Program-made: the position numbers and the translations under genes
Notes under the pieces: generated by a model
Told to the model about the DNA's origin: nothing
Seen by the model: only the letters and a program-made list of their open reading frames with translations
The model's database searches: none
Shown: in pieces, positions 9,197 through 34,535 of the stretch
Position numbering within the stretch: the stretch's first letter is position 1
How the letters are laid out: every line of letters starts with the position of its first letter
From: an uncultured Bacillales bacterium
GTDB lineage: Bacteria > Bacillota_I > Bacilli_A > RF39 > UBA660
Direction of reading: 5' to 3'
Length of the DNA: 64,000 nt
Assembly: GCA_946628005.1 (NCBI GenBank)
Contig: CAMOWA010000003.1
Span: 28 to 64,027 of the forward strand

Positions 9197-9202
9197 TTTA
9201 TA

Positions 9203-11594: not shown

Positions 11595-12039
11595 ATATAT
11601 AGATGAAATTGTTATGGAAGCAAATAATGGGGTTTTAAATCAAGAAGGTGGCCCATTTGGAGCTGTTGTTGTTGATAGGAATGGAAAGATAATTGGAAAG
11701 GGTCACAATACTGTTTTAAAAGATCATGATCCAACATGTCATGCAGAGGTAAATGCAATAAGAGATGCTTGTAAGAATATAGGTTCTCATAAATTAAATG
11801 ATTGTATTATTGTAACTGTATGTGAGCCTTGTCCAATGTGTTTATCTACTATTATTTGGTCAAATATTAAAAAAGTTTATTATGCTTCTACACGAAGAGA
11901 TGCTGCCCGTATTGGTTTTCGTGATGAAGCAATATATGATTATTTAGGTGGGAAAGATGATAATTTATTAACACTAGAAAAATTTTCATCTGATTCTTGT
12001 CGTAAATTATTTGATGATTATAAAGGAGAGATTTATTAA
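11587..12039 (+). CDS. Guanine/nucleoside deaminase (CDA-fold zinc deaminase)
   Basis: HAEVNAI and CEPCPMC zinc motifs. Colinear with GuaD-type 155-aa proteins. Start moved to the ATG at 11587 (MDKYIDEI). Confidence 0.8.
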   Translation: MDKYIDEIVMEANNGVLNQEGGPFGAVVVDRNGKIIGKGHNTVLKDHDPTCHAEVNAIRDACKNIGSHKLNDCIIVTVCEPCPMCLSTIIWSNIKKVYYASTRRDAARIGFRDEAIYDYLGGKDDNLLTLEKFSSDSCRKLFDDYKGEIY

Positions 12040-19841: not shown

Positions 19842-20726
19842 ATGAATATAGATTATAATTTATATAAAATATTTTTATATTTATATGAAGAAAAAAGTAT
19901 CTCTAAGACAGCTAATAAATTGTATGTTTCTCAACCTGCTATTAGTTATAGTTTAAAAGAATTAGAGCAACAATTAGGGTATACATTGTTTTATCGTAAT
20001 TCTAAGGGGATTGAACCAACTATTGAAGCAAAAGAACTCTATGGCTATTTATCTTGTGCTTTTAATATTATAAAAAATGCAGAGGAGCATATTACTAATT
20101 TAAATCATTTAACGAAAGGAACAATTCATGTTGGAGTTCGATCTTATCTTCTTGTTTCTTTTTTAGAGGAGTTTATTCATAATTTTTTAATTAAGTATCC
20201 AAATATTCATTTTAAGATTACTTCATTATATGATGAGGATTGTTCTAAGTTATTAGAGAATGGTGTAATAGATTTGTTAATTGATGTTTTCCCTTTTTCT
20301 AATAATGAAATCGTAAAGAAAAAGTTAGATGTTTGGAATGGTTGCTTTTTTTATAATAAAAATTTATTTCATGTTTCTAATCTATCGTTTAATGATTTAT
20401 CTAATTTTTCTGTTATCTTACCAAATTCTTCTTCTCTAAGAGGAAAATTAGATGAAGTAATATCTTCTTCTAATGTACAATTTTCTAATATTATTGAATC
20501 TGATAATGTTGAATTTATTATTGATTTTGTTAGAAAAGAGAAATATATTGGTTTTTTGCCTTATGAAATTTTAGATAAATTAGAAGATAAAACGTTATTT
20601 GAAAAAATTTATTTTGAAGATAAAAATTTAACTTATGATATTTGTTGCTGCTACAAAGATGAATTTTTAAATCCAGCTAGTAAAAAATTTGTTGAAATGT
20701 TAGATGAAAAAGAAAGTGTTAATTAA
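19842..20726 (+). CDS. LysR-family transcriptional regulator
   Basis: N-terminal HTH SISKTANKLYVSQPAISYSLKELEQQLG. Length is 294 aa. Confidence 0.8.
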   Translation: MNIDYNLYKIFLYLYEEKSISKTANKLYVSQPAISYSLKELEQQLGYTLFYRNSKGIEPTIEAKELYGYLSCAFNIIKNAEEHITNLNHLTKGTIHVGVRSYLLVSFLEEFIHNFLIKYPNIHFKITSLYDEDCSKLLENGVIDLLIDVFPFSNNEIVKKKLDVWNGCFFYNKNLFHVSNLSFNDLSNFSVILPNSSSLRGKLDEVISSSNVQFSNIIESDNVEFIIDFVRKEKYIGFLPYEILDKLEDKTLFEKIYFEDKNLTYDICCCYKDEFLNPASKKFVEMLDEKESVN

Positions 20727-20737
20727 ACACTTTTTTT
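20714..20737 (+). terminator. Rho-independent terminator
   Basis: AAGTGTT/AACACTT stem followed by T7. It lies inside the track's extended PBP ORF, which supports the start at 20761. Confidence 0.65.
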
Positions 20738-20760
20738 CATATTGTTTAACGAGGTGGATT

Positions 20761-22004
20761 ATGTTTACTAAAAGTATTGATAAAAGAATTAAAATATTAT
20801 TTTTTGTGTTTTTGATTCCTTTTTTTCTTATTCTTATTAAGGTCTTTTATATTCAGGTTTTTGAGTATAAAAAATTAAATAAGTTAGCTAAAAATTTATG
20901 GAGTAGGGATTTGGAAATACAAGCAGAGAGAGGTAAAATATTTGATAGAAATGGTGTTGTTTTAGCGGATAATTTAACTACCACTTCTTTAGTTATTCTT
21001 CCAAATCAGGTAAAAGATAAGGAGCTTGTTACTAAGAAGTTAGCAACTATTTTGAATGTTTCTTATGATTCTATGAAAAGGCATGTTTATAAAAAAACTT
21101 CAATTGAGAGAGTTCATCCAGAGGGAAGAAGGCTTTCTTATGATGTTGCTGAAAAGATTCAGAGGCTTCATTTTGATGGTGTTTATTTAGTTAAAGAATC
21201 TAAGAGAGATTATCCTTATAAGGATTTACTTTCACATTCTTTGGGTTATGTTGGTATTGATAATCAAGGGTTATCTGGATTAGAATATCAATATGATAAA
21301 ATTTTAACTGGTGAGAATGGAGCTATTAAATATTTTAGTGATGCTCATGGTAATAAATTATCTGTTAGTGATCAATATGTTTCTCCAAAGAATGGTTTAA
21401 ATATTAATTTAACTATTGATTTAAATATTCAAAAATCTTTGGAGAGAGAATTATCTAATATTAAAGATATGTTTCAGCCGGAGATGGCTCTTGCTATTGT
21501 AGTAGATCCAAAAAATGGTGAAATACTTGGAATGAGTTCTTATCCGGATTATGATCCTAATCAATATCAAAAATTTAGTTCATCTTCTCTAAGTCGTAAT
21601 CTTCCAATTTGGGCTAGTTATGAACCTGGAAGTACTTTTAAAATTGTAACAATGGCTTCTTCTGTTGAAGAAAAAGTTATTGATATTTTTAAAGATCGTT
21701 TTTATGATTCTGGTAAAGTTAGTGTTGATGGAAGTGTACTGAAATGTTGGAAATCTGGAGGACATGGAGATCAAACTTTCTTAGAAGTGTTACAAAATTC
21801 TTGTAATCCTGGCTTTGTAAAACTTGGTCAATTGTTAGGAAAAGAAAGATTGTTTTCTTATATAAAAAATTTTGGTTTTGGTGAAAAAAGTGGGATTGAT
21901 TTAAATGGTGAGGGAACAGGAATATTATTTCCAATGGAAAAGATTGGTAATGTTGAACTTGCTACTTCGGCTTTTGGGCAAGGGATTAGTGTCACACCTA
22001 TACA
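20761..22004 (+). CDS. spoVD: SpoVD-like class B penicillin-binding protein, 5' segment (interrupted)
   Basis: gaggtgg RBS and ATG at 20761. TM segment, PBP dimerisation region, SxxK (STFK) and SxN (SCN). The frame runs ..AFGQGISVTP and then 4 codons into the insert before a stop. Confidence 0.8.
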
Positions 22005-22021
22005 CCTTATTGTCTAATAAA
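21991..22021 (+). other. attL of element E1
   Basis: Core TACA at 22001-22004. Element-side arm GTCTAATAAA at 22012-22021, 7 nt from the CA dinucleotide. Confidence 0.7.
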
Positions 22022-22157
22022 TGATACCTTTATTATTATTAGAGGAATAAATAAGTAGTAAATATACGAAAAGTATGATATTGAGTATATATATAAACAT
22101 GTAAATTAACTTACATTTTAGTGTAAGTTTTTTAGAATTATATAAAAAAAAGCAAAA

Positions 22158-22176
22158 TTCGTACAAAATGTACGAA
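22158..22176 (+). promoter_or_regulatory. Operator-like perfect palindrome upstream of the E1 ATPase gene
   Basis: TTCGTAC-aaaat-GTACGAA, 65 nt upstream of the ATG at 22241. Confidence 0.4.
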
Positions 22177-22240
22177 AATGTTAAAAAAATATGTTTTTTT
22201 TGCACGGAAAGTGCTAAAATTTGTATAGAGGTGAATTTCT

Positions 22241-23536
22241 ATGTATAGAAAAATAGAAGAAGAATTAAAAAAGTGGAAGAATGATTATAAGATGCCACTT
22301 ATGTTAGTTGGCGCAAGACAAACAGGAAAAACATATATTTTAGAAGAATTTTGTAAGGAAAATTTTGATAATTATGTTTATATAAATTTGGATAAAGAAG
22401 AAAATATAGCTGAAATATTTGAAGAAACTATCGATCCAAATACAATAATAGAAAAAATAGAAATAATTAAAAATGTAGTTATTAATCCTGAGAATACAAT
22501 AATATTTCTTGACGAAATTCAAGTAAGTGAAAGAGCTATTACATCTTTAAAATATTTTTGTGAAAGTGAAAAACAATATAAAATTGTTACTGCTGGCTCT
22601 CTACTTGGAGTTAAAATCAATAGATTTAAATCATCATTTCCAGTTGGTAAAGTAACAATTAAATATCTATATCCAATGGACTTTGAAGAATATTTAATGG
22701 CCTTGAAGGAAGATAAGTTAATTAATGAAATAAAAACTCATTATGAATCTAATGAAGCTCTAATGAATCCAATACACGAAAAAGCATTAGATTTATATAA
22801 AAAATATTTAGTACTAGGTGGAATGCCTGCTATGATAAATAATTTTATAGATAATGAATGTAATATATCGCATGTTGATTTTACTTTACAAGAACAAATA
22901 ATAACTTCATATTTAGCAGATATGAATAAATATACTGAAAATAGTGAAGGAATTAAAAATAATCAAATATATAATTCTATACCTAAAGAACTTGCTAGAG
23001 TTAATAATACTTTTAAATATAGTATAGTAGATAAGGATGCTAGAAAAGTTAGATATGAAAGTAGTTTGGATTGGTTACTTGCTAGTAATATGATATTAAA
23101 ATGTGATATGACTGAAAAAAATGAATCTCCTTTAAAAGCATTTGCTAATTCTGATAAATTTAAATTATATTTAAGTGATGTTGGATTACTTAGATCATTA
23201 TCTAATTTAGATTACAGTGAAATTCTTTTAGATAAAAATGAAATGTTTAAGGGAGTCCTTACGGAAAATTATGTGGCATGTTCCTTATATCCTAATTCTA
23301 AAGAATTATATTATTATAATTTTGATAGATATGAAATAGATTTTTTAATAAAAATAGATGGAGATATTATTCCAGTAGAAGTTAAAAGTGGTAGAAGAAC
23401 TAATAGTAAAAGTTTAAATGAATATATAAAGAAATATAATCCTAACTATAGTATTAGAATATCTTCTAAAAATTTTGGCTTTGAAAATAAAATAAAATCT
23501 GTACCACTTTATGCAGTATTTTGTATTAATAAATAA
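22241..23536 (+). CDS. AAA+ ATPase (AAA_14 + DUF4143-type architecture)
   Basis: Walker A GARQTGKT and Walker B IIFLDEIQ. The 431-aa length and C-terminal EIDFLI..PVEVKSG segment are typical of DUF4143 ATPases. Confidence 0.7.
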   Translation: MYRKIEEELKKWKNDYKMPLMLVGARQTGKTYILEEFCKENFDNYVYINLDKEENIAEIFEETIDPNTIIEKIEIIKNVVINPENTIIFLDEIQVSERAITSLKYFCESEKQYKIVTAGSLLGVKINRFKSSFPVGKVTIKYLYPMDFEEYLMALKEDKLINEIKTHYESNEALMNPIHEKALDLYKKYLVLGGMPAMINNFIDNECNISHVDFTLQEQIITSYLADMNKYTENSEGIKNNQIYNSIPKELARVNNTFKYSIVDKDARKVRYESSLDWLLASNMILKCDMTEKNESPLKAFANSDKFKLYLSDVGLLRSLSNLDYSEILLDKNEMFKGVLTENYVACSLYPNSKELYYYNFDRYEIDFLIKIDGDIIPVEVKSGRRTNSKSLNEYIKKYNPNYSIRISSKNFGFENKIKSVPLYAVFCINK

Positions 23537-23787
23537 TAAAATGTAGTAATGTTTATAATATAACATTTAAAGATATGCTATTGAAGCAGCTTTAAGAATA
23601 ATTTATATATGGAGGTAATAAATATGACAATAAAAGATGAATTACGCGAGCAATTTAATTTTTTTTAAAAGACAATCATTTGAAAATAAAAAAGAGTATA
23701 AAAGAAGAATTATATTTGCCAGAGGTTAGAGGAAAAGTTATTGATAAGAAAAAAAGACATTATAATAAATAAGATGATATATTATAT

Positions 23788-23818
23788 GAAGAAAAACTAT
23801 ATGTTCTTCTTTTTTTTT
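23788..23818 (+). terminator. Rho-independent terminator within E1
   Basis: GAAGAA/TTCTTC stem followed by T9. It follows a frameshifted small-ORF relic at 23634-23772. Confidence 0.5.
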
Positions 23819-23898
23819 GAAAAATGATAGATAAAATATAAATTTCTGAGTTCTTTTTTTGTTTAAAAAAAATATAATTTAAAGAAAGGACAAAGTAT

Positions 23899-24105
23899 AT
23901 GAAAAATGAAAGTAAAGTACCATCTAAAATAATAGAGTTAGAAACAAGTATTAAATTACTTGAATATTTAAAACAAAGAAATACTATTGATGATGGGATG
24001 TATAATTTTACTATTAATAAATTATTAAATAAAATCGAAGTGGAAAAAAGTAAAATTAATGATGATTATATAAATAATATTAATAATTATAAATTATTAA
24101 TTTAG
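23899..24105 (+). CDS. Small 68-aa protein directly upstream of the E1 recombinase (candidate directionality factor or regulator)
   Basis: aaggac RBS. Its stop lies 10 nt before the recombinase ATG. No recognisable motif. Confidence 0.4.
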   Translation: MKNESKVPSKIIELETSIKLLEYLKQRNTIDDGMYNFTINKLLNKIEVEKSKINDDYINNINNYKLLI

Positions 24106-24115
24106 GAGGTGCGTT

Positions 24116-25777
24116 ATGGACTTGTATACAGTTAGGGAAAATATTATGAAAGGTATTAATCTCCAAGAATTAAATTTAAGAGTATGTTTTTATGCAAGAG
24201 TATCAACTGATAAAGATGAACAATTACATTCTTTACAAAGTCAAATATCTTTCTTTAATGATTACATTAGTAAAGTTCCTAACTGGGAATTTATAGGTTC
24301 ATATATTGATGAAGGTATTAGTGGTACACAGGTTAAAAAACGTGAAGAATTTTTAAGAATGATACGAGATGCTAAAAGACATAAATTTGATTTAATATTA
24401 ACAAAAGAAATATCAAGATTTTCAAGAAGTACATTAGATAGTATTATGTATACACAAGAATTATTATCTAATGGTGTTGGTGTATATTTCTTAAATGATA
24501 ATATAAATACAATATTACCTGATTCTGAACTTAGACTTACAATGATGTCTTCAATTGCTCAAGATGAAGTGAGGAGACTTTCTGAAAGAGTTTCGTTTGG
24601 TATGAGGCGAAGTATTGATAATGGTGTAGTGTTAGGTTGTTCTAATATCTATGGATATGTAAAAGATAAAGGAAAATTAGTTATAGATGAAGAACAAGCA
24701 GAAATGATTAAAATAATATTTGATAGATATGCTAATACGAGTGATGGTTTATCTAAAGTATCAAGATATTTATTTAGTTTAGGATATAAAAGTAGAACTG
24801 GTAAAAAGATTGATACAACAATACTTACTAGAATTATAGAAAATCCTAAATATAAAGGATATTATTGTGGACATAAATCAAAAGTATTGGATTATCGTAC
24901 TAAACAAAAGAAAAGATTAAATGAATCTGATTGGATTGTTTATAAGGACTATGATAATGTTCCACCAATAGTATCTGAAGAACTATGGGAACGAGCTAAT
25001 GTTAAATTAAAAGAGAGACAAGATAGTTTTACAAATCGTGCAGTTAATAAGAAAGTATTTCAAAATAGATATACTTATTCAGGAAAAATATATTGTGGAT
25101 GTCATAGTCTTACTTATCATAGATCAAGTGCTGGGAAAAGGAAAAATAATCCCGTATGGGAATGCCAAATATATAGGAAAGAAAGTTTAAAAGGATGTTC
25201 TAATCCTAGAGTTTTTGAACTAGAACTTGATGAAGTTTTTAAAGATATGTTTAATAAATTATTTAAAAGAAGAAATAATATATTTGATGAAATATTAAGT
25301 GAATGTAAGAATTATTTAGAAACTAATAATAATGAATCAGATATTAAAAATTTAGAGTCTAAAATAATAGTTTTAGATAATAAAAAGGATAAATTACTAG
25401 AACTTGTTATGGAGGAATACTTATCTAAAGAAGATTACAAAAAGCAAGTAGATTTAATAAATGAAGATTTAGTTATTTACCAAAGTAAAATAAATGAATT
25501 AAAAAACAATAAGAAAGATAAAAATTATATGGAAAATAAAATTAGTGAAATAAAAAATGTTTTAGAAAAGTCTTTAGAAGATGATAAATGCTATAGTGAT
25601 ATATTTAATGAGATAATAGATAGAATAATAGTTCATAAACAAAGTGATAAAGTGATTCAATTATATATTTTTATTAAGACAGGAGAAAGTGTATATACTA
25701 CTTCTGATAATTTATGCAAAAAGTTTCATTTATTAGACCCTGTTACAACAAGTTATGGCGGTTTCTGCTGTTGTTAA
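24116..25777 (+). CDS. Large serine recombinase (resolvase domain + recombinase domain + zinc ribbon + coiled coil)
   Basis: FYARVSTDKDEQLHSLQSQ contains the catalytic Ser. Also ILTKEISRFSR, the Cys cluster CGCHx..WECQ..C and a long coiled coil. The ORF reads through attR into the spoVD 3' segment. Confidence 0.9.
   Translation: MDLYTVRENIMKGINLQELNLRVCFYARVSTDKDEQLHSLQSQISFFNDYISKVPNWEFIGSYIDEGISGTQVKKREEFLRMIRDAKRHKFDLILTKEISRFSRSTLDSIMYTQELLSNGVGVYFLNDNINTILPDSELRLTMMSSIAQDEVRRLSERVSFGMRRSIDNGVVLGCSNIYGYVKDKGKLVIDEEQAEMIKIIFDRYANTSDGLSKVSRYLFSLGYKSRTGKKIDTTILTRIIENPKYKGYYCGHKSKVLDYRTKQKKRLNESDWIVYKDYDNVPPIVSEELWERANVKLKERQDSFTNRAVNKKVFQNRYTYSGKIYCGCHSLTYHRSSAGKRKNNPVWECQIYRKESLKGCSNPRVFELELDEVFKDMFNKLFKRRNNIFDEILSECKNYLETNNNESDIKNLESKIIVLDNKKDKLLELVMEEYLSKEDYKKQVDLINEDLVIYQSKINELKNNKKDKNYMENKISEIKNVLEKSLEDDKCYSDIFNEIIDRIIVHKQSDKVIQLYIFIKTGESVYTTSDNLCKKFHLLDPVTTSYGGFCCC
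25729..25747 (+). other. attR of element E1
   Basis: Element-side arm TTTATTAGAC at 25729-25738, 7 nt from the CA of the TACA core at 25744-25747. Confidence 0.7.
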
Positions 25778-26405
25778 TGGAGGATATTTATATAAACCTT
25801 ATATTGTTAAAAGTATAAGTGATGATGTAAATACTATTGTTCAACAAAATAGTAGAGTTTTAAGAAGAAAAGTGATTAGTTCGGAAACTTCCTCTATTAT
25901 GAGAATTGCTTTAGAAAGCGTTGTTGCTAAGGGTGGAGGAAAAAGTGCATATATTGAGGGATATCGTATTGGTGGAAAGACAGGTACTGCTCAGAAACAA
26001 CAAAATGGTGTTTATTTAGTTAATAATTATATTATGAGTTTTATGTCTATTGTTCCATCTAATGATCCTCGTGCTGTTTTATATTTAGCAATTGATAATC
26101 CTAAAAATACTGCAATGTTATCTAGTTATACAACTACACCAATCGCAAGAAGAATTTTATTAGATATTATTGATGCTTTAAAAATACCTAAACAAAAGGG
26201 TGGTATGGAAAAGGACTTAGAATGGAATGATAAATTAACTTATGAAGTTCCTAATGTAGTTGGTTTAAATGTTAAAGATGCTAAAAAACAATTATTTAAT
26301 TATGATGTTAAAATTATTGGTTCTGGTGATATCGTATATGAGCAATCTCCTAAAGCAGGAGAGGTAATTGAAGAAGGTAGTAAAATAAGAATTTATATTA
26401 ATTAG
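25748..26405 (+). CDS. spoVD: SpoVD-like class B PBP, 3' segment (KTG motif + single PASTA domain)
   Basis: In-frame continuation ..(I)QQVMAVSAVVNGGYLYKPYIV. KTGTA motif. C-terminal PASTA domain (VPNVVGLNVKDAKKQL..). Confidence 0.8.
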
Positions 26406-26531
26406 TATTTTACGATTATTTACGTCTTAATTTTTTTAGTTTTACCTTTCTTTATTAGAAAATAGTTATCAAGTTATTCTAAATATGGTAAAATTATATG
26501 TAGTAATTATTACTGGGAAGGAGTATCTAAT

Positions 26532-28196
26532 ATGAATGAGACCATTGGTTCAAAAGGTGGGCATAATGATAGAAGAAGGTCTTTAATTATTTCTCGAAAG
26601 AAAAAAGAAAAATTAAAAGAAGAACAAGAGATTAAAGAATTAGAGAAATCTGTTAAAAAGAATCGAAAATATGTTTTAATTAAAACTGTTCCTTTAGTTT
26701 TAGCTGAGGGGATTATTCAATTTGTTAGTCCTTCTACAAATCTGAAAAATAAGACAGATGAATATGGTGATGAAGATTTTGTTTTTACTGATGATTCCAG
26801 TAAAAAAAGCAGTAATACTACTTCTAAAAAGTCTAGAAAAAAGATTATTTCTATTAATGGAGAGAATGTTGTTGTTTCCATACCTCCAAATAAAAATAAT
26901 AAGAAGAAAGTACATGATGAAATAGAATTATTAGAAGAGGACAAGGATGAGAAAGATAAAAAGGAATTAAAGAATAAAAAAGATACTAAGAGTGAGAAAG
27001 ACAAGAATAGTTTCAATCCTGCTCCAATTTTAATACCTATTTCAATAGGAGAAAAGATTTTTAATAATTCTTCTTCTAAATCAGTTGATAAAACTCATTC
27101 TTCTGATGAAATGAAGATTATAGATAATATCCTTTCTTCATCAATAGAGTTAGAAAAAGTTAAATCTAGAAAGATAGTTGAGGCTTATGAAAAAGAGTTA
27201 AAGGATATTCGTTATGATTTAAGATTATTAATTTATGAATATAATCACTTAGTTGATGATGAAGAAAAATTATTATTTAGTGATGAAGCTGCTGATTTAT
27301 TAGATAAGCTTACTTCAGTTATTTCAAAGTTAGAAGAACTAGAAAAAAAGATTCAGATTGATGATTTAGATAAATATGATGATGATTATATTTATTATTT
27401 AATTGAAGAGTATATGAAGGAGTTTAAAAGTCAAAAAATTGTAGATGAGTTAAAAGATTCTCCACTATATATTGAAATAGTTGAAAAAATAGAAGAGCTT
27501 CAGCAAAAAAAAGATATTTTGTCTGGGCAAGTAGAAGAGAAGAAAACAAATTTTGAAGAGAGAGAAAAGAAGTTTGATGAATTAAAAGAAAAATTTAATA
27601 AAATTGAACAAATTAATAAAGAATTATTAGATTTTCAGTATGAGCAAGATGCTTTATTACAAGAAGCACGTGAAAAGGTTAGGGATGCTTTAACTGTTGA
27701 GGAGAAAGTTAAGGTAGAGATGAAAATTTTAGATAATCAAAGTAGAAGATTATTAAGGATGATTGCCTTGCGTATGTTTTTTCCTGGTAGTTTTTCTGCA
27801 AAAGCAATTTCTTCTTCTATCGCAGCTTATCTTTTGTTTACTCGTAGGCTTATTCAACCAGAGACTATTACAAAGAAGTATAAGGTAATTAAAGTAATTG
27901 ATTATGGTGAAGATATTAAAGACAGTATTTCTTCATTAGAAGGCGCTATTGATTTACTTGGAAAAACTGGGAAACAGGTTGATAGATTAATAGATGATAT
28001 TCATGATAAGTTTAAAGACTATATTGGTGTTGTAAAAGAATGTGATTATTTACTATATGATTTGAATAAAATTAAGGATAATATAAAAGAAAAAGAGTAT
28101 GAGATGGAAAGAATTAAAAAAGAGCAAGAAAATGTGTTAAAAGAAAATAATGCTAAAGTTTTGAAAATAGGTGAATATCCTATTGAAAATGTGTAA
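26532..28196 (+). CDS. Hypothetical K/E-rich coiled-coil protein with one central hydrophobic segment
   Basis: Long ORF. Possible extended -10 promoter (TGgTAAAAT) upstream. No recognisable motif. Confidence 0.5.
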   Translation: MNETIGSKGGHNDRRRSLIISRKKKEKLKEEQEIKELEKSVKKNRKYVLIKTVPLVLAEGIIQFVSPSTNLKNKTDEYGDEDFVFTDDSSKKSSNTTSKKSRKKIISINGENVVVSIPPNKNNKKKVHDEIELLEEDKDEKDKKELKNKKDTKSEKDKNSFNPAPILIPISIGEKIFNNSSSKSVDKTHSSDEMKIIDNILSSSIELEKVKSRKIVEAYEKELKDIRYDLRLLIYEYNHLVDDEEKLLFSDEAADLLDKLTSVISKLEELEKKIQIDDLDKYDDDYIYYLIEEYMKEFKSQKIVDELKDSPLYIEIVEKIEELQQKKDILSGQVEEKKTNFEEREKKFDELKEKFNKIEQINKELLDFQYEQDALLQEAREKVRDALTVEEKVKVEMKILDNQSRRLLRMIALRMFFPGSFSAKAISSSIAAYLLFTRRLIQPETITKKYKVIKVIDYGEDIKDSISSLEGAIDLLGKTGKQVDRLIDDIHDKFKDYIGVVKECDYLLYDLNKIKDNIKEKEYEMERIKKEQENVLKENNAKVLKIGEYPIENV

Positions 28197-28274
28197 ATAT
28201 AATTGTAAAGTTTTTTTAATCTATCATATTGTTTATATGATTATGATATAATGTTTTAGGAATGGAGTGGTTAT

Positions 28275-29255
28275 ATGTTATTATTAACCAAAGCTGTTTT
28301 TGCAATTATGATTGGTTTTTTGTCTTCGGCTATACTTGGACTTGTTTTGTTACCAGTTTTAAGGCATTTAAGAGTTGGACAAAAAATTTCTATTTTTGTG
28401 CAAGAATCGCATCGTAAAAAAGAAGGGACTCCAACTATGGGAGGGTTAATTTTTATTATTCCAACTGTAGTTGCTACTTTGTTACTTATTTGTACTAACC
28501 GAATTAGTTATACTTCCAATTTAGGAATTGTTTTACTTGTTTTTATTGGATATGCCTGTATTGGTTTTTTAGATGATTTTTTATCTATAAGAAAAGCAGA
28601 TAATGAAGGGTTAACTACTTATCAAAAACTATTTATGCAAGTTGTAATTGCTATTGGATTTTTCTATATTTATATGAGAAGTGGTGGACAAACTGCATGG
28701 GTTGTTGGAACGTTACATATTGATTTAGAACTTGGATGGTTATATGGTCTTGCAATTTTATTTGTTTTGGTTGGTGCTAGTAATGCAGTTAATTTAACGG
28801 ATGGATTAGATGGTTTAGCAGGGGGGTTGTCTGCAATTGCTTTTATTGCTTTTGCTTTAATATCTTTATCTGTTGGTTTTGAAGATATTGGAATTTTTAG
28901 TTTAATATTAGTTGGTAGTTTAGTTGGCTTTTTAATTTATAATTCTCATCCTGCAAAAGTTTTTATGGGTGACACTGGTTCTTTAGCATTAGGGGCTGTT
29001 ATGGGAGCAATTGCTATTTTGACACATAGAGAATTAACTTTATTAGTTGTTGCATCTATATTTGTTATTGAAACATTAAGTGTAATTTTACAAACATTTT
29101 GGGTATTAGTTTTTCATCGAAAATTATTTTTAATGACTCCTATTCACCATCATTTTGAAAAACTTGGTTGGCAAGAGACAGATATTGTTAAATTATTTTG
29201 GGTTGTAGGATTAGTTTTATCAATGGCTGGTATTATATTTGGGGTATGGGTTTAG
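28275..29255 (+). CDS. mraY: Phospho-N-acetylmuramoyl-pentapeptide transferase
   Basis: KEGTPTMGG, NAVNLTDGLDGLA, VFMGDTGSLALG and HHHFE motifs. Confidence 0.92.
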   Translation: MLLLTKAVFAIMIGFLSSAILGLVLLPVLRHLRVGQKISIFVQESHRKKEGTPTMGGLIFIIPTVVATLLLICTNRISYTSNLGIVLLVFIGYACIGFLDDFLSIRKADNEGLTTYQKLFMQVVIAIGFFYIYMRSGGQTAWVVGTLHIDLELGWLYGLAILFVLVGASNAVNLTDGLDGLAGGLSAIAFIAFALISLSVGFEDIGIFSLILVGSLVGFLIYNSHPAKVFMGDTGSLALGAVMGAIAILTHRELTLLVVASIFVIETLSVILQTFWVLVFHRKLFLMTPIHHHFEKLGWQETDIVKLFWVVGLVLSMAGIIFGVWV

Positions 29256-29279
29256 AACTTTATAAGTTCTTTTTTTTTT
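29254..29279 (+). terminator. Rho-independent terminator between mraY and spoVE
   Basis: AGAACTT-tat-AAGTTCT followed by T10. Confidence 0.65.
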
Positions 29280-29310
29280 ACAATATTCATATTATTTTAT
29301 AGGTGATAAG

Positions 29311-30299
29311 ATGAAAAAAATGGATTACATTTTATTATTTGTAGTTTTTCTATTATCCATTTTTGGATTATTAATGGTATATTCTTCATCAAATATTTGG
29401 GCTGATTATAAATTTCATGATTCTTTTCATTATCTTAAATATCAATTTTTATTTTTTATTGTTGGAATCTTATTTGTATTTTTAATATCTAAAATTCATT
29501 ATAGGTTTTACTATACTCATGCTAATCAGATTTTGATATTTAGTTTAATTTTATTAATACTTGTTTTAATCCCTGGTATTGGTAGTATTCGAAATGGAAG
29601 TAGGAGTTGGTTTGGTATTGGTTCTTTTGGTATTCAGCCTAGTGAAGCTGCTAAAATAAGTATTTTGATTTTTACGAGTAAATATTTATCTAGAAGTGAT
29701 GGCTATATTAATAGTTTTATAAAAGGGATATTTCCTATTTTATTTATGACTTTTTTTCTTTTTGGTCTTATTATGCTTCAACCTGATTTAGGAACAGGAA
29801 CAATTTTATTTTTATCTGTTATATCTTTATTATTTATTGCTGGAGTTAATTTAAAATTCTTTTTATGTGGTGGTTTTATAGGACTCTTTGGATTAATTGG
29901 ATTGATAATAATAGCTCCTTATCGTCTTCAGAGAATTACTTCTTTTCTAGATCCTTGGAAAGATCCCTTAGGTACTGGTTTTCAAATGATACAAAGTCTT
30001 TATGCAATTGGACCTGGTGGTTTACTTGGAGAAGGATATTTAAATTCTATTCAAAAACACTTTTATTTACCAGAACCGCAGACTGATTTTATTTTTTCCA
30101 TAATTACGGAAGAGTTTGGTTTTATAGGTGCACTTGTTGTTGTTATTTTGTTTTCTATTATATTATATCGAGGTATTTTTATCGCAACACATTGTAATGA
30201 TTTGTTTGGAAAATATTTATCTTTTGGAATTGTTTTTCAATTAATATTTCAGGCTCTATTAAATTTAATGGTTGTAGTAGGGTTAATACCAGTTACAGG
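29311..30299 (+). CDS. spoVE: SpoVE/FtsW-family SEDS protein, 5' segment (interrupted)
   Basis: Ten-TM-type profile. RSWFGIGSFGIQPSE and PEPQTDFIF motifs. It ends ..GLIPVTG, with the stop codon supplied by the first bases of the insert. Confidence 0.8.
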
Positions 30300-30306
30300 G
30301 TAAGTC
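30291..30306 (+). other. attL of element E2
   Basis: AGTTACA-GG-g-TAAGTC. Crossover GG at 30298-30299. Confidence 0.65.
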
Positions 30307-30628
30307 CTACTAGGTAACTGATAATGATAAATAAAATAAACCTTTATTTTAAAAGGAATTTGAGATTTTAATATAAAATAGAAAATATTAATAATGAGAT
30401 AAAATTTATAATAATTATTAAAAAATACAAAATTTTGCGGATAAAAAAAGGGGTAATTTTACCATTACTGCAAAGTTATTGTTCTTATAAGAGGTACCCA
30501 TGAAACGAAAAATAATAAAATAAAAGACTAGATTTTCTAGACTTTTTTCGTAAAATTTACATATGTTAAATAGATTGTTTATTAAGTAATAATTAAAATA
30601 TGATAAAATTATAATAGGTGATGAGTGT

Positions 30629-31393
30629 ATGAAAAAAAATAAAAAAATAATCACACTTATATTTATAACTATTTTTATTTTATTAATTTTATCTATTATA
30701 TTTATTTTATATAATAAGAATAAAGTACATAATAATACAAAAAAAGAATATATAAAAGAAGAAATAAAAAATAAAGATGAAAATAAAGAAAAAGAAGAAA
30801 CTAAAAAGGAAGAAACTAATGTAGAAGAAGAAATAAAAGTTGAAGAAGAAACAAAAAATGAGGAATATCTTGAAAAAGAAGAGAATAATAATTCAAAAAC
30901 AAATAATAGTCAATTTAATAGTAAAAACAACAATAATCAAAACAATAATCAAAATAATAATCAAAATAGTAGTCAAAACAATAATCAAAATAATAACCAA
31001 AATAATAATCAAAATAATAATCAAAATAGTAGTCAAAATAATGATACACCTAAAGAAAGTACACCACCTCCTCCTCCAACATACACATGTCCTTCAAACT
31101 ACTCATTAAATGGTACAGAATGTATTAGTACACAAGCAGCAAATTATATTTGTACAGATGGAAGAGTGGAATATTCAAATGGAACTATAAGTGGTTGTAT
31201 TAATATGAATGAAGGTTATTATATAGAAGAAGGAGCATGCCCTGCAGGATATGGAGAATTAAAAATAATTTCTATAGGAGTACCAGATATGACAAAATGT
31301 TTGCCAGTATATTCAAAAGTACCTGTATGTACAGAAGATTATAATCTACAAGGTTCAACTTGTATAAAAATAATACCCGCAACTCAAAGTTAA
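30629..31393 (+). CDS. Signal-anchored protein with K/E-rich and (NNNQ)n low-complexity linker and a 10-Cys C-terminal domain (E2 cargo)
   Basis: N-terminal TM segment. Asn/Gln repeat and a PPPPP hinge. The motif Cx3Yx2xGxxCI occurs at both ends of the Cys-rich domain. Confidence 0.6.
   Translation: MKKNKKIITLIFITIFILLILSIIFILYNKNKVHNNTKKEYIKEEIKNKDENKEKEETKKEETNVEEEIKVEEETKNEEYLEKEENNNSKTNNSQFNSKNNNNQNNNQNNNQNSSQNNNQNNNQNNNQNNNQNSSQNNDTPKESTPPPPPTYTCPSNYSLNGTECISTQAANYICTDGRVEYSNGTISGCINMNEGYYIEEGACPAGYGELKIISIGVPDMTKCLPVYSKVPVCTEDYNLQGSTCIKIIPATQS
30925..31043 (+). repeat. Tandem 12-nt repeat (aat aat caa aay) encoding (NNNQ)n
   Basis: About 10 near-identical in-frame units, with two larger 48-nt super-repeats ending ..caaaatagtagtcaaaa. 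Confidence 0.8.
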
Positions 31394-31420
31394 AAGATTA
31401 GAGAAATCCAATCTTTTTTT
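31393..31420 (+). terminator. Rho-independent terminator within E2
   Basis: AAAGATT/AATCTTT stem with a 10-nt loop, followed by T7. Confidence 0.55.
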
Positions 31421-31726
31421 ATGTTATTGTCAAGATGAAGATATTGTTGGATTGCTATTAATTTTGGATAATTGTTGGTTAGTTTTTTTTAAAAACAAAT
31501 ATATAAGAAACAGTTGAGGCAATATCTAAACGATTAGGTAAGAGAACAATAGAAAAATAATCACTAAGTCAATCAATTAGTTTATCTAACTATAATTGTA
31601 ACAAATTAATTCTGCTTTTTAGGAAGATTTAAATATGAATGTTATATCATTATATAAATTTAAAGAGAAAATAAAAGATATTCATTATTTTCTTTTTTTG
31701 TGAATAGATTTAATAGAGGTGGCTCT

Positions 31727-31861
31727 ATGAAACGAATAGATAAAGATGGTAAACGAAGAAAACTTAACATTGAATATATTTATAAAAAAGATGGAACCAA
31801 GCTTGAGGAAATTCTAAAGGAGGGATATTTATGCTATTTAAGAAATTTAAAGGTCAAATGA
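31727..31861 (+). CDS. 44-aa basic protein (not in the ORF track), tentatively TnpW-like
   Basis: agaggtgg RBS 5 nt upstream. MKRIDKDGKRRKLNIEYIYKKDGTKLEEILKEGYL loosely resembles small proteins found with clostridial large-serine-recombinase transposons. The similarity is weak. Confidence 0.3.
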   Translation: MKRIDKDGKRRKLNIEYIYKKDGTKLEEILKEGYLCYLRNLKVK

Positions 31862-32008
31862 TTTACTTTTTTTGAATGGATGATGGTTGTTACATGGCAT
31901 CTTGAGGTAATGGTATCGCGTAATTTAGGATTGGAGGAATTTCATAATGCAATATAGATTTATCAATAACAATATTTTGGATTTACTTAGTATGGAGGAC
32001 TTTTATTA

Positions 32009-33583
32009 ATGGAATATATCTGTGGTGCTTATGACAGACTATCTGATGCCGATAGTAAAATAGATGAAAGTTCTTCTATACAAAGTCAAAAAATCATAAT
32101 TGATTCTTTTGCAAAATTTAACAATCTTAAGATATATAAACATTATGTAGATGATGGTTATTCTGGTGGTAATTTTGATAGACCTGCTTTTCAAGAGATG
32201 ATTAATGATATTGAATCTGGAATAATTAATTGTGTTATTACCAAAGACTTATCAAGACTTGGTCGTGAAATGTATAAAACAGGTAAATATATAGAAGAAT
32301 ACTTTTTAGAAAAAGGTGTTAGATATATTGCAATTAATGATTCCTATGATTCTAATATTGGTGATTCAATGCTTGGAATTAGATTAAGTGTAAATGATTT
32401 ATATTTAAGAGATGTATCGAAAAAAGTAAAGACTTCATTAAGAGCAAAACAAAATCGTGGCGACTATATTGGTTCATTTCCTTTATATGGTTATAAGAAA
32501 GATCTAAATGATAAGCATAAATTAATTATTGATGAAGAAGTAAGACATATAGTCGAATTAATTTATGACTTGGCTTTAGAGGGAAAAAGTCCTAATAAAA
32601 TAGCAGAATATTTAACCTTAAAGAAAATACCAATTCCTATTGTTCATAAACAAGAACCTAGAGCAAAAGATATCACTGAAAATGATGGATTTGGGATTTG
32701 GAAAAGACAGACAGTAAAAGGTATTTTAACAAATGAAATGTATATTGGAAATATGGTACAAAATACTCATAATAAAATTAGTTATAACTCAAAGAAATTA
32801 AGGAAAACATCAAAAGATGAATTAATTATTGTTGAGGGTACTCATGAAGGAATTGTATCTAAGGAAACTTTTGATAAAGTTCAAGATATACTTCATAAAA
32901 AAACAACTACTCGAGTTACTGACCATCAATTAGATTATTTGTTAGGAGGATTACTTTATTGCCATGAGTGTGGTCGAAATATAAGAATAAGTGAAGATAT
33001 TTTAAAATCTGGTGTAAGACATTATACTCAATGTAATTTATATACTAGAAAAGGAAAATATGGAATATGCTCATCTCATAGAATTAATTATGATTGGTTA
33101 GAAGAAGATATTTTAGAATATTTACAAGATGTATGTGAAAAATTTTGTAAACATTATGACTTTAATGAATTAGAAGATAGTTCAGAAAATATTGTTATGA
33201 AAAATTTAAAAGAAATTAATCAAAAAATTGAAAAATTAAACAATTTATTAAATTCTCAAAAATCTACCATAGATAATCTATATATGGATAAAGTAAAAGG
33301 TTTAGTAGATGAAGAAATGTATAAACGAATCTACGATAAAACAAAACAAGAAATTAATAGATTAAATATGGAATTAGAAGAATTAAATAATAAAAAACAA
33401 ATTAATGAAAAGCAGCCATCTGATAATACTAGTTTTAATAAATGTAGAAGATCTGTTTTAGATTATATGTCTTTAAAGAATCCTAGGAAAGATCAGATAA
33501 AAAGACTTGTAGATAAAATAGAAATTGATAAAGATAAAAAAGTATATGTACATTTAAGATTTCCAGAGTTAATAGAAATTTAA
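32009..33583 (+). CDS. Large serine recombinase (E2)
   Basis: YDRLSDADSKIDESSSIQSQ contains the catalytic Ser. Also VITKDLSRLGR, zinc ribbon CHECGx..C..C and a C-terminal coiled coil. It ends 88 nt before the attR core. Confidence 0.9.
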   Translation: MEYICGAYDRLSDADSKIDESSSIQSQKIIIDSFAKFNNLKIYKHYVDDGYSGGNFDRPAFQEMINDIESGIINCVITKDLSRLGREMYKTGKYIEEYFLEKGVRYIAINDSYDSNIGDSMLGIRLSVNDLYLRDVSKKVKTSLRAKQNRGDYIGSFPLYGYKKDLNDKHKLIIDEEVRHIVELIYDLALEGKSPNKIAEYLTLKKIPIPIVHKQEPRAKDITENDGFGIWKRQTVKGILTNEMYIGNMVQNTHNKISYNSKKLRKTSKDELIIVEGTHEGIVSKETFDKVQDILHKKTTTRVTDHQLDYLLGGLLYCHECGRNIRISEDILKSGVRHYTQCNLYTRKGKYGICSSHRINYDWLEEDILEYLQDVCEKFCKHYDFNELEDSSENIVMKNLKEINQKIEKLNNLLNSQKSTIDNLYMDKVKGLVDEEMYKRIYDKTKQEINRLNMELEELNNKKQINEKQPSDNTSFNKCRRSVLDYMSLKNPRKDQIKRLVDKIEIDKDKKVYVHLRFPELIEI

Positions 33584-33663
33584 AATCAGTTATTTGGAAG
33601 CATTACTGCCATTTTTCAGTTATTTTGCAAAGGCAACCTATCAAAAATTAGTTGCACTTGCAA

Positions 33664-33679
33664 GACTTAGGGTGTTACT
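33664..33679 (+). other. attR of element E2
   Basis: GACTTA-g-GG-TGTTACT. Crossover GG at 33671-33672. Confidence 0.65.
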
Positions 33680-33772
33680 CTTCCATTTTTAAGTTATGGT
33701 GGAAGCAGTTTACTAGTTAGTATGGGAAGCGTGGGAATTTTACTTAGTATTTCTAGAAACTTAACTTATTAG
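33673..33772 (+). CDS. spoVE: SpoVE/FtsW-family SEDS protein, 3' segment (33 codons)
   Basis: (G)VTLPFLSYGGSSLLVSMGSVGILLSISRNLTY* is the universally conserved SEDS C-terminal motif. It has no start codon of its own and is preceded by an in-frame TAG. Confidence 0.8.
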
Positions 33773-33785
33773 TAAATAATATTTA

Positions 33786-33814
33786 TTGACAAAAATCAAC
33801 ATTTGTGGTATAAT
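33786..33814 (+). promoter_or_regulatory. Consensus SigA promoter with extended -10
   Basis: TTGACA, 17-nt spacer, TATAAT, with TG at -15/-14. Confidence 0.65.
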
Positions 33815-33840
33815 TTGCATAGTTTTTAGGGGGGAATAGT

Positions 33841-34527
33841 ATGAATATGAATATTTCTAGTAATGAAAATTTATTTGAAATTAGATTAGATTCAATACGA
33901 GGATTAGTAAGTAAAGCTACTTTAAAACATTTAGAAGAAAAAAATATTATTATGGTAGGGGATTTATTAGAAAAGTCATGTGATGATGATTTTATAAATC
34001 ATCTTTCAAATTCTAAATTAATGGTTGATAAAGAAACTTTGGATGTTATTAAATATTTAAAATGTAAATATTTAAATGTTGATCCTCAAATTGATTTTTC
34101 AAAAGAGTATTTTTATTTTTTAGAACAATTTGGATTTACGAATAGATCTCATAAGGCTCTTTATCTAATGGGAATTGGGAACGATAATATTTTTGAATTA
34201 TTAGATCCTAATAATAAAAAAAGATACTTGAATAATTATAGGCTTATAGGTGAGACTGTATATGATGAAGTTGTATGTAAACTATCAATTATTTATAATT
34301 ATTATAAGCAAAAGTATCAACAGGATTTGATGATGGCTGAGGCTAATTCCGTTAAATATCTTTTACCGGAATTTAATTATAATTGTGATGAGATAATGAA
34401 TTTACTTTTAAGTGGAAAGTTATCTTTAGAAAGTAGTCAAGAGTTACTAGATAGAATAGAGTCTTTAAGAATGATGCTTTATGAGTATAACAATGCTCAT
34501 TTTGTGGAAAATGAAAAAAAGCTTTAA
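33841..34527 (+). CDS. Hypothetical protein with two helix-hairpin-helix-like (RNAP alpha-CTD-like) segments
   Basis: IRLDSIRGLVSKATLKHLEEKNIIMVGDLL and FGFTNRSHKALYLMGIGNDNIFELL resemble the LxLSxRxxNxLxxxGIxTxxDL pattern. Confidence 0.35.
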   Translation: MNMNISSNENLFEIRLDSIRGLVSKATLKHLEEKNIIMVGDLLEKSCDDDFINHLSNSKLMVDKETLDVIKYLKCKYLNVDPQIDFSKEYFYFLEQFGFTNRSHKALYLMGIGNDNIFELLDPNNKKRYLNNYRLIGETVYDEVVCKLSIIYNYYKQKYQQDLMMAEANSVKYLLPEFNYNCDEIMNLLLSGKLSLESSQELLDRIESLRMMLYEYNNAHFVENEKKL

Positions 34528-34535
34528 AGCTTTTT

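Follow-up and report, generated by a model that had tools for sequence, protein, structure and literature searches.

The sporulation genes known so far to be split are sigK, spsM, spoVFB, spoVR, gerE, kamA and yabG. In cyanobacteria, heterocyst elements are located in nifD, fdxN and hupL and encode the recombinases XisA, XisF and XisC, XisF being a large serine recombinase (LSR). Among the sporulation elements, skin, which interrupts sigK, carries its recombinase beside the 3' fragment of the gene, whereas its other content varies between species (bioRxiv 10.1101/2022.02.25.481979). The gin element found in gerE of B. cereus is not a prophage and carries GirC and GirX (PMC5595907). SPbeta in spsM and phi3T in kamA carry site-specific recombination units made of SprA and SprB (PMC4191935, PMC5499854, PMC6957869).

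The element described here, E1, was analysed in a 64-kb stretch of DNA, called the window below, from an uncultured rumen bacterium, in which it interrupts a class B PBP gene of spoVD type. Like these intervening elements, E1 lies inside a mother-cell sporulation gene, encodes its own recombinase at one edge and restores the ORF when excised in silico. The closest likeness is with skin (recombinases SpoIVCA in B. subtilis and CD1231 in C. difficile, with recombination directionality factors, RDFs), which also has its LSR immediately upstream of the 3' fragment of a mother-cell gene and restores the ORF precisely. However, the two differ in target, in size (14–48 kb for skin, 3.1 to >10.7 kb for the E1 family) and in the absence of phage-like genes from E1; their recombinases are distantly related, and developmental excision is known for skin but only proposed for E1. 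Like gin, E1 associates a serine recombinase and a putative small accessory factor with defence-type cargo (restriction-modification in gin), but gin is 28.6 kb long, encodes three recombinases and is restricted to few Bacillus strains, whereas the E1 family relies on one LSR and a small protein, orf68, in at least 124 species. The order attL ... rdf-int-attR (the rdf being a candidate in E1) and the exchange of modules among cargo backbones are shared with SPbeta and phi3T; these, however, are active prophages, and DNA damage induces them as well, whereas E1 carries no phage genes and has no relative above 40% identity in the phage collection.

More distant systems also share features with E1. 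The heterocyst elements are recombinase-bearing, reside in genes for a terminally differentiated cell and can be several per genome or gene, and XisF is among the weak matches of the E1 LSR, but phylum, cell type and target genes are different. The SCCmec-type Ccr islands are likewise LSR-driven and site-specific, and their defence or resistance cargo varies, as it does in the E1 family (PDC-S01, AbiE and APH/AadA-like genes); however, rlmH remains active after SCC has inserted at its 3' end, whereas E1 lies in the middle of a catalytic domain. None of the papers searched names spoVD or spoVE as the target of an element; the first-pass annotation of this DNA likewise did not regard spoVD as a described target. 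The E1 family appears as a new, large family within the known class of sporulation-gene intervening elements to which skin, SPbeta, vfbin, vrin, gin and yin belong; it would add to their short list spoVD and, through a second element, spoVE, whose products form the cognate transpeptidase/SEDS pair for cortex synthesis.

Anatomy of E1 and reconstitution of the split gene

The spoVD-type gene is interrupted at 22004|25748 by the 3,743 bp of E1, all the genes of which are co-oriented with spoVD. The features of the locus (positions in the window) are:

20738–20745, + strand: CATATTGT box resembling a -10 element for the mother-cell sigma factors (sigma-E/sigma-K), separated by 5 nt from the downstream ribosome-binding site of spoVD
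20761–22004, + strand: spoVD 5' part, codons 1–414 plus the CA of codon 415, with TM segment, PBP dimerisation domain, N-half of the transpeptidase, STFK and SCN
21981–22031, + strand: attL, with host arm, CA core (22003–22004) and element arm CCTTATTGTCTAATAAATGATACC
22005–25747, + strand: element E1, limits from alignment to the empty sites L001, L002 and L003
22012–22024, + strand: left arm of the terminal inverted repeat, 13 bp, perfect, GTCTAATAAATGA
22108–22133, + strand: AT-rich hairpin AACTTACA-TTTTAG-TGTAAGTT followed by TTTT, read from the sequence
22241–23536, + strand: cargo gene, 431-aa ATPase with AAA_14 and DUF4143 domains (Pfam), PDC-S01 (PADLOC)
23899–24105, + strand: orf68, conserved 68-aa protein, candidate RDF
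24116–25777, + strand: LSR, 553 aa, with Resolvase, Recombinase and Zn-ribbon domains and catalytic YARVSTD
25719–25771, + strand: attR, with element arm AAAAGTTTCATTTATTAGAC + CCTGTTA, CA core (25746–25747) and host arm ACAAGTTATGG
25726–25738, + strand: right arm of the terminal inverted repeat, 13 bp, perfect, TCATTTATTAGAC
25748–26405, + strand: spoVD 3' part, C-half of the transpeptidase with KTGTA, then one PASTA domain

The 5' ORF (20761–22017, 418 aa) ends with ..AFGQGISVTPIHLIV* and matches, in profile searches, PBP_dimer and positions 2–168 of Transpeptidase; the 3' piece (ORF 25755–26405) covers Transpeptidase positions 170–298 and one PASTA domain. The exact junctions are given by L001, a 96%-identical contig devoid of E1, whose uninterrupted allele is 98% identical to the spoVD 5' part. 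Its alignment to the window is broken at 22004 and 25744, and the two alignment blocks overlap by 4 bp, TACA, present at 22001–22004 and 25744–25747. Joining 20761–22004 to 25748–26405 gives a 1,902-nt ORF encoding 633 aa without any internal stop. The joined protein aligns gap-free over the junction with C. difficile SpoVD (PDB 7rcz, E 2e-107), ..FGQGISVTPIQQVMAVSAVVNGG.. facing ..FGQSISVTPIQLITAISSIANGG.., and natural uninterrupted alleles, also of 633 aa and 98% identical to the joined ORF, are found in near-identical contigs. Precise in-silico excision of E1 thus restores an ORF that exists uninterrupted in nature. The first-pass annotation had already described the split gene with its motifs on either side, both TACA copies and the in-frame ORF obtained by joining at CA; all its coordinates hold, and the colinearity with SpoVD and the uninterrupted allele that it proposed to look for were both found.

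The LSR matches PF00239, PF07508 and PF13408, each above cut-off, and its N-terminal domain matches PDB 3g13 (E 7e-39); its best NCBIfam matches (CcrB, CcrC and XisF) are all far under cut-offs. Its gene abuts attR at the edge of E1, and the ORF spans the CA core, the final 10 codons and the stop being host spoVD DNA, as also seen for LSRs of other family members. The stop of orf68 lies 8–13 nt ahead of the recombinase start. This gene is present in 22 of 24 complete elements, encodes 68 aa in 58 of 61 loci and displays a pN/pS of ~0.39, i.e. purifying selection. Profile searches gave neither a family match nor homology to known RDFs for its product, which position and size nevertheless make a candidate RDF.

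The element ends had been annotated as a 10-bp inverted repeat (GTCTAATAAA at 22012–22021, TTTATTAGAC at 25729–25738), each arm 7 nt from CA. The repeat is indeed present, its true perfect length is 13 bp, and it reaches 20 nt at 90% complementarity. Within the window, the 13-mer occurs only at the two ends of E1, in opposite orientation. The attL element arm is kept in 27 other loci with an invariant CA preceded by variable host bases, and 80 loci share the attR element arm together with the ..CA|ACAA junction. CA, the sole dinucleotide common to every attL and attR, is, on this comparative evidence, the crossover core, which upholds the earlier view of E1 as a bounded LSR element with such a core. 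Since 80 independent loci show the same ends and the same core, chance is excluded. The domain order of the recombinase and the att sites, with 13-bp arms 7 nt from a non-palindromic CA, are as predicted for an LSR system, in which att sites of about 40–50 bp show imperfect dyad symmetry about a 2-bp crossover. Furthermore, attP-like junctions of the predicted structure were found within tandem arrays; exact-pattern scans of JGI metagenomes and IMG/VR, run without positive control, gave no match to a free attP.

The cargo ATPase matches PADLOC PDC-S01 (PDLC04786) with an E of 4.7e-152 (residues 1–430 on profile positions 3–433 of 439), and a copy with 88% identity occupies the equivalent position in another family member (L084). 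It is a candidate anti-phage defence gene, the PADLOC family being itself of unproven defence role. The hairpin upstream of it is a possible terminator for the truncated spoVD 5' transcript; it is absent from the output of a consensus terminator scan, which demands at least three G-C pairs. Neither E1 nor any of 24 complete family members showed a phage structural, lysis or replication domain, the best LSR match in the phage collection (40% identity) belongs to an unrelated record of 50% G+C, and attR gave no match in IMG/VR. A prophage or prophage remnant was rejected because of the lack of phage domains and the distance of this nearest LSR; by its gene content, E1 is a small, non-phage integrative element.

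The E1 family in RF39: site specificity, constraint and turnover

Relatives of the E1 LSR, which define the family, occur among uncultured Bacilli of the gut and rumen that belong to the order RF39, in at least 124 GTDB species. In all the 80 loci retrieved, the spoVD 3' half immediately follows the LSR and the insertion falls at the same codon, even though the host SpoVD proteins share only 40–94% identity. The family is thus site-specific and, as these alignments indicate, occupies a single stretch of conserved spoVD codons (..GxSVTP-IQQ..); in ten other species, joining at CA also gives in-frame ORFs of 633–636 aa. The conserved content is limited to the LSR and orf68, the variable cargo including elsewhere AbiE and resistance-like (APH/AadA-like) genes. 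Among the matches listed, at least 25 distinct 216-aa fragments (≥91% identity) stand against 7 full-length alleles (≥92%), the two lists being not strictly comparable. In RF39, a major uncultured order of the gut and rumen whose genomes are reduced, the splitting of sporulation genes is common and no isolated case, and pipelines annotating MAGs or censuses of sporulation genes will score spoVD or spoVE as missing or as pseudogenes unless such elements are recognized. The family also offers dozens of natural compact LSR orthologues with predicted attP, attB and CA core and a candidate RDF, which could be useful for integrase engineering.

The spoVD 3' half is an intact ORF of 218–221 aa in 78 of 78 complete loci. 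Between interrupted lineages, omega is 0.08–0.15 (~0.1) for both halves, equal to the values obtained against uninterrupted alleles. Judging from these rates, the split spoVD is kept functional under strong constraint in the interrupted lineages. To our knowledge, sporulation has never been seen in RF39, an uncultured order; such constraint on a gene that is usually split is evidence that these hosts still sporulate. RF39 has been predicted to include sporulators, with repeated loss of sporulation (PMC10868615).

The elements are younger than their hosts, since the pS of the LSR (0.27–0.48) is below that of host genes (0.5–0.7). Near-identical hosts harbour different LSR subfamilies (L088/L046 and L057/L075), the host of L095 is that of the window yet its LSR pS is 0.125, and L001, the closest relative of the window (pS ~0.05), has an empty site. 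This horizontal spread and turnover indicate that the E1 family behaves as an active mobile element, besides being a possible developmental switch, and imply that the intact halves could partly reflect recent insertion. Defence and aminoglycoside-resistance-like cargo is carried between genera on a chassis of 3–11 kb.

Other elements target the same gene pair. The SxxK and SxN codons of spoVD are the insertion points of at least three further LSR lineages, and up to two elements occur in a single spoVD (L039). Another lineage splits the neighbouring spoVE, also in the window, where its element is E2. At least four unrelated LSR lineages converge on the spoVD/spoVE cortex synthase pair. It is conceivable, though we propose it only tentatively, that the SpoVD-SpoVE pair of RF39 is gated by independent recombinase 'locks' that need several coordinated mother-cell excisions and act as exchangeable defence or resistance islands crossing genera. 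This would amount to an order-wide multi-element developmental rearrangement, comparable to heterocyst nif, in endospore formers with genomes of 1.3–1.5 Mb. The motifs each occupied by a different lineage would be SxxK, SxN and GxSVTPIQ in SpoVD and PVTGVTLPF in SpoVE, and two elements can divide one spoVD into three pieces.

Proposed excision in the mother cell versus possible insertion in a safe harbour

The mother cell is a dead end, and spoVD, which encodes its cortex transpeptidase, is dispensable for growth; an insertion in this gene would be tolerated for these reasons. We consider it fairly probable that E1 is carried in the germ line and excised in the mother cell to restore spoVD, as for skin, SPbeta and gin. 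The LSR would join attP, with 13-bp inverted repeats 7 nt on each side of CA, to attB (CCTATA-CA-ACAAGT) at the CA dinucleotide, thereby splitting spoVD. The reverse attL x attR reaction, which probably needs the orf68 protein as directionality factor, would restore the 633-aa ORF to the base. E1 would be silent in vegetative cells and spores, and its excision in the mother cell would let the cortex be made, while the host may benefit from defence, toxin-antitoxin or resistance cargo. Excision is probably sporulation-timed and mother-cell-specific, a view that the constraint on the split gene and the convergent targeting of spoVD/spoVE support indirectly. Retention of E1 in the spore genome is consistent with the same integrated arrangement being found in several independent samples, i.e. 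in 6 further contigs from sheep rumen in which it is identical.

Alternatively, E1 may be an ordinary site-specific element that uses spoVD as a safe harbour without developmental control, the cortex being blocked until chance excision and the intact halves resulting from recent, often reversed insertions. We regard this as rather unlikely, although the low synonymous divergence of the LSR, the exchange of subfamilies between near-identical hosts, the LSR of L095 and the empty site of L001 all agree with it, as does the selfish or defence type of the cargo. Moreover, no sigma-E or sigma-K promoter was recognized before orf68 and the LSR, where a conserved proximal box resembles TATAAT/TATACT; scans for sigma-70-type promoters are uninformative in this DNA of 25% G+C. 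However, chance excision fits poorly with the high prevalence of split genes suggested by the fragment and allele counts, lists that are not strictly comparable, and with an omega of ~0.1 in interrupted lineages. Furthermore, none of 78 halves is decayed despite up to two elements in one spoVD and the splitting of both spoVD and spoVE in the window, and the convergence of at least four unrelated LSR lineages on the cortex pair is the pattern of developmentally excised elements (PMC6957869).

Identity of the target and sporulation context

The joined protein scores 684.5 bits against TIGR02214 (SpoVD), over profile positions 4–634 of 636, i.e. 3.5 bits short of the trusted cut-off of 688, and the next-best model reaches 338 bits, about half. 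Its best PDB match is C. difficile SpoVD, relatives at 76–78% identity carry the NCBI name SpoVD, and the gene order spoVD-x-mraY-spoVE corresponds to that of the B. subtilis dcw cluster. The encoded class B PBP has a single PASTA domain, its gene lies near mraY and spoVE, and it is distinct from the division PBP. Indeed, L031 carries an intact PBP2X-like division PBP upstream of spoVD, following mraZ-rsmH, and L067 has a paralogue. On these homology and context data, the target of E1 is a spoVD-type paralogue, so the SpoVD-like identity first given to it stands.

Mother-cell expression of the split gene is suggested by orthology and by the CATATTGT box, a predicted mother-cell promoter element that precedes the ribosome-binding site GAGGTGG (20751–20757) and fits the B. 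subtilis consensus, CATACA-T / CATA---TA. Of 16 spoVD upstream regions taken from diverged species, between which the intergenic DNA cannot otherwise be aligned, at least 13 show a CATA(t/a)nnT box 5–15 nt before the ribosome-binding site. It is very improbable that the split PBP is vegetative or dual-use and that E1 acts as a reversible ON/OFF switch of wall synthesis resembling phase variation. The TIGR02214 score slightly under cut-off, the reduced PBP repertoire of RF39 (PMC10868615) and the absence of a second class B PBP from the 64-kb window would fit such a switch, but the separate division PBP of L031 and the paralogue of L067, a spoVD model score twice that of any other model and the CATA-type box argue against it; furthermore, a growth-essential gene could not be split across so many species.

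Least probable of all is that E1 is an immobile relic in a spoVD pseudogene of a lineage losing sporulation: the window E1 lacks the structured leader and small ORFs that most family members have, and sporulation was repeatedly lost in RF39, but E1 has kept an intact LSR, orf68 and pair of att sites, all of them conserved, both spoVD halves are intact and constrained, and the same element is unchanged in several samples. The window also carries gpr and spoIIP, both intact, with scores above cut-offs.

The interrupted spoVD gene and its junctions

The first-pass annotation described a gene for a SpoVD-like class B PBP split by E1, an element encoding a large serine recombinase (LSR), with the STFK and SCN motifs in the 5' ORF and PASTA in the 3' piece, a description that the ORFs and Pfam domains match. 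The features concerned are:

From 20761: spoVD 5' ORF, with the RBS GAGGTGG; membrane anchor, PBP dimerisation domain and N-half of the transpeptidase (STFK, SCN), covering Pfam Transpeptidase positions 2-168
22001-22004 and 25744-25747: TACA, present at both junctions
22005-25747: E1, 3,743 bp
22012-22024 and 25726-25738: terminal inverted repeat of E1
25755-26405: ORF covering Transpeptidase positions 170-298, with one PASTA domain

The 5' ORF reads ..AFGQGISVTP, then IHLIV and a stop codon inside foreign DNA, and the Transpeptidase positions found on each piece identify them as the two halves of one domain. Joining these halves at CA gives, as proposed, 1,902 nt encoding 633 aa without any stop. 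The joined protein is colinear with the crystal-structure sequence of Clostridioides difficile SpoVD (7rcz, E 2e-107), with no gap at the junction, and matches the NCBIfam model TIGR02214 (SpoVD) end to end with 684.5 bits, twice the score of the next model, the trusted cut-off being 3.5 bits higher. Furthermore, the uninterrupted allele expected in relatives does exist: a public protein collection includes 633-aa proteins (P0001-P0007) that are 92-98% identical to the joined product, and the related contig L001, devoid of the element, is 96% identical in DNA to the window along 9.2 kb on the left side of E1 and 2.6 kb on its right side, its two alignments overlapping by exactly TACA.

The terminal inverted repeat, claimed to be 10 bp long, is in fact a perfect 13-bp repeat, each arm of which lies 7 nt away from CA; its 13-mer has no further copy in the window. 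The element arms are kept across the family, attL (left junction) reading ..CA followed by CCTTACTGTCTAATAAATGATAC, and attR (right junction) AAAAAGTTTCATTTATTAGAC-N7-CA followed by ACAA. Since CA is preceded by variable host bases in attL and by variable element bases in attR, it is the sole dinucleotide common to all sites, and the comparison argues for the CA crossover suggested by the first-pass annotation. Recombination would join the host halves into an empty site, attB, predicted to read ..GTCACACCTATACAACAAGTTATGGCGG.., and leave ..TTTATTAGACCCTGTTACACCTTATTGTCTAATAAA.. as attP on the E1 circle. Four loci (L046, 5098-5142; L056, 6761-6805; L076, 6764-6808; L098, 4174-13157) contain tandem arrays in which two elements meet at an internal junction of just the form predicted for attP (right arm, N7, CA, left arm); such arrays may stem from recombination of attL with attR across sister chromosomes.

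Globally, it is practically certain that E1 is a bounded LSR element whose junctions are exact and reversible. The sequence description of the first-pass annotation is confirmed, and its interpretation is supported wherever sequence alone can be informative, the timing of excision lying outside that range.

Content, distribution and turnover of the E1 family

E1 carries a 431-aa AAA_14/DUF4143 ATPase (full-length match to the PADLOC defence candidate PDC-S01, E 5e-152), a 68-aa ORF that matches no family (orf68) and, starting 11 nt after orf68, a 553-aa LSR with all three hallmark domains; phage, conjugation and replication genes are all absent from it. MT837325.1, the best match of the LSR in a phage collection (40% identical), was rejected as a relative, having 50% G+C and no spoVD sequence. 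A perfect palindrome with 8-bp stems, TTCGTACA-AAA-TGTACGAA (22158-22176), lies 65 nt 5' of the ATPase gene and could serve as an operator or as a terminator for the minus strand.

The LSR ORF spans the crossover, its last 10 codons and stop being spoVD DNA (25748-25777). In an excised or tandem form, the LSR would read into the left end of the element and have a different, longer tail. Such tails are found in two related proteins, P0125 and P0140, whose interpretation as excised circles was rejected, their contigs being tandem or complex arrays.

Relatives of the E1 LSR at 88-93% identity number thousands in metagenome assemblies, and at least 124 of the GTDB species representatives have a relative. 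In all 80 fetched loci with a readable 3' flank, the spoVD 3' half directly follows the LSR and begins at the same codon, the host SpoVD being 40-94% identical to that of the window. The complete elements are 3.1-10.8 kb long and have nothing in common except the LSR (24/24) and orf68 (22/24). An AbiEi/AbiEii pair is the most frequent cargo, present in 14 of the 24 complete elements. In the window's own genus, an E1-type backbone at the same spoVD site carries clustered genes for an aminoglycoside phosphotransferase (APH), an AadA-like nucleotidyltransferase, several GNAT acetyltransferases and a zeta toxin (L103, 305-10023; L106, 1999-10023; L107). In L106 the PDC-S01 ATPase persists as a 52-aa remnant.

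Large serine integrases require a directionality factor for excision. The obvious candidate is orf68, which keeps its 68-aa length in 58 of 61 loci, precedes the LSR start by 8-13 nt and has a pN/pS of about 0.39.

Various data indicate that these elements move. The LSR has a lower pS (0.27-0.48) than the adjacent host genes (0.5-0.7), and in L084 the element is 92% (LSR) and 88% (ATPase) identical to E1 with a host SpoVD just 67% identical. Different LSR subfamilies are found in near-identical hosts. The host flanks of L095 are essentially identical to those of the window (pS <=0.007) but its E1 LSR differs (pS 0.125), which suggests recombination or replacement among elements in one strain background. 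In L001, the closest relative of the window, the site is empty. Together with the tandem arrays, these observations show that germ-line integration and precise loss both occur over evolutionary time, and they weaken the arguments for long residence. Within the genus, element and host have diverged about equally (pS 0.32 for the LSR, 0.25-0.31 for the host), which fits long residence, but given the turnover in L095 and L001 this co-divergence is no decisive proof of it.

The host and the probable use of the split gene

The relatives fall in RF39, an uncultured order of Bacilli (Gilroy et al., PMC8035907) with complete MAG chromosomes of 1.3-1.5 Mb, in which both sporulating and non-sporulating species are predicted (PMC10868615). 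The exact 418-aa spoVD fragment and an identical arrangement occur in contigs of several sheep-rumen samples (SAMN02144230, SAMN02144231, SRR873596); an exact look-up of the window's LSR sequence gave no record. The window encodes the GPR endopeptidase and SpoIIP, both above the NCBIfam cut-offs, which is evidence that the host keeps sporulation genes. Their genes, gpr (spore germination protease, 44308-45099) and spoIIP (45138-46040), are adjacent, as in B. subtilis.

The order spoVD-x-mraY-spoVE in the window is also found in the dcw cluster of B. subtilis. In L031, the interrupted gene comes after mraZ, rsmH and a PBP2X-like division PBP that is intact and 706 aa long, and is therefore a second, spoVD-type paralogue. 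Shortly 5' of the spoVD RBS, a CATA(t/a)nnT box is kept even in species whose intergenic DNA cannot be aligned elsewhere; if the B. subtilis consensus applies, this box is similar to the -10 element of mother-cell sigma factors.

The split gene does not look like a decaying one. Each of the 78 complete 3' halves remains open for 218-221 codons from the junction, and CA-joining gives ORFs of 633-636 aa in ten further species in which both halves are visible. When the window is compared with three more interrupted lineages from its genus, omega is 0.08-0.15 for both halves (pS 0.25-0.30), matching the comparison with the uninterrupted allele of L002. Distinct 216-aa-type fragments (>=91% identity) number at least 25 and full-length alleles (>=92%) 7, two lists that are not strictly comparable. 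A gene so often split, yet intact and constrained, must be reassembled somewhere.

Two observations concern the surroundings. Mycoplasma-type surface lipoproteins, a PARCEL-repeat protein (114-1055) and a MAG6410-family transglutaminase-related lipoprotein (42940-43869), coexist with peptidoglycan and sporulation genes, which fits a position of RF39 between walled Bacilli and Mollicutes. In L002 and L003, an extra 400-aa gene (L002, 16658-17863) separates a 226-aa gene from a polysaccharide deacetylase gene; the window (34514-34519) does not have it.

Convergence on cortex synthase genes and the question of developmental excision

The window contains a second element, E2, unrelated to E1, that splits the adjacent SEDS gene spoVE/ftsW:

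29311-30300: spoVE 5' part
About 30301-33673: E2, 3.37 kb; attL, ACAGGG followed by TAAGTCC; attR, CTTAGGG followed by TGTTACT
30629-31393: E2 membrane protein, 254 aa
32009-33583: E2 LSR, 524 aa
From 33674: spoVE 3' part

The rejoined spoVE corresponds to a 362-aa allele found in L002 (..GLIPVTGVTLPFLSYGG..), and E2-type LSRs (76-82% identity) adjoin spoVE in L021, L028 and L083. Other LSR lineages, 28-44% identical to that of E1, split spoVD at the SxxK codons (L032 and L078, about aa 290-307) and at the SxN codons (L018, L034 and L076, about aa 346-349), and L039 carries spoVD in three pieces (3347-12287). The protein collection also includes many C-terminal SpoVD fragments, 336-345 aa or 288-291 aa long, that fit these SxxK and SxN sites. 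All insertion sites lie within the most conserved motifs, which would offer an element the widest host range.

Independent LSR lineages have thus repeatedly chosen spoVD and spoVE, two genes acting only in the mother cell, a terminal cell, and such convergence is what has been described for developmentally excised elements (PMC6957869). Excision of E1 in the mother cell during sporulation, the central claim of the first-pass annotation, is the reading that we favour, as probable though well short of certain. That E1 is instead a plain mobile element in a safe harbour, under no developmental control, we consider rather unlikely: the weakened case for long residence leaves it room, and the constraint on the split gene and the convergent targeting speak against it. 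All remaining readings are, even jointly, very improbable.

Full-text searches retrieved sigK, spsM, spoVFB, spoVR, gerE, kamA, yabG, spoIVFB and spoVK as reported split targets. They gave no report of spoVD or spoVE as a target, the only co-occurrence of spoVD with attB concerning secondary ICEBs1 sites; coverage of searchable full texts is incomplete and any claim of novelty is limited accordingly. The E1 family is a large new family within a known kind of sporulation-gene intervening elements.

Searches for a free attP gave no match in JGI metagenome contigs (strict and relaxed patterns) or IMG/VR, nor did the attR pattern in IMG/VR; these scans lacked a positive control, and their negative results are hence uninformative on excision. 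No sporulation-type promoter was found 5' of orf68 and the LSR, nor any CATA-type box before orf68, and a scan for sigma-70-type promoters was uninformative (46 sites, 47 expected). Read-through from the spoVD promoter into E1, which would couple excision to sporulation, is unlikely because E1 contains, about 100 nt in, an AT-rich hairpin and T-run (22108-22133) and a terminator-like hairpin precedes orf68 in most family members. Neither the structured orf68 leader nor any part of 20000-35000 matched an Rfam family. This leader is absent from the window's E1 (equivalent region 23770-23898) and from L030; in most family members it is strongly structured (z -4.2 to -4.9; L012 and L036, at 9660-9790 in each), combining a GTCCTTT anti-Shine-Dalgarno pairing with the terminator-like hairpin GAACTTAA/TTAAGTTC and its T-run.
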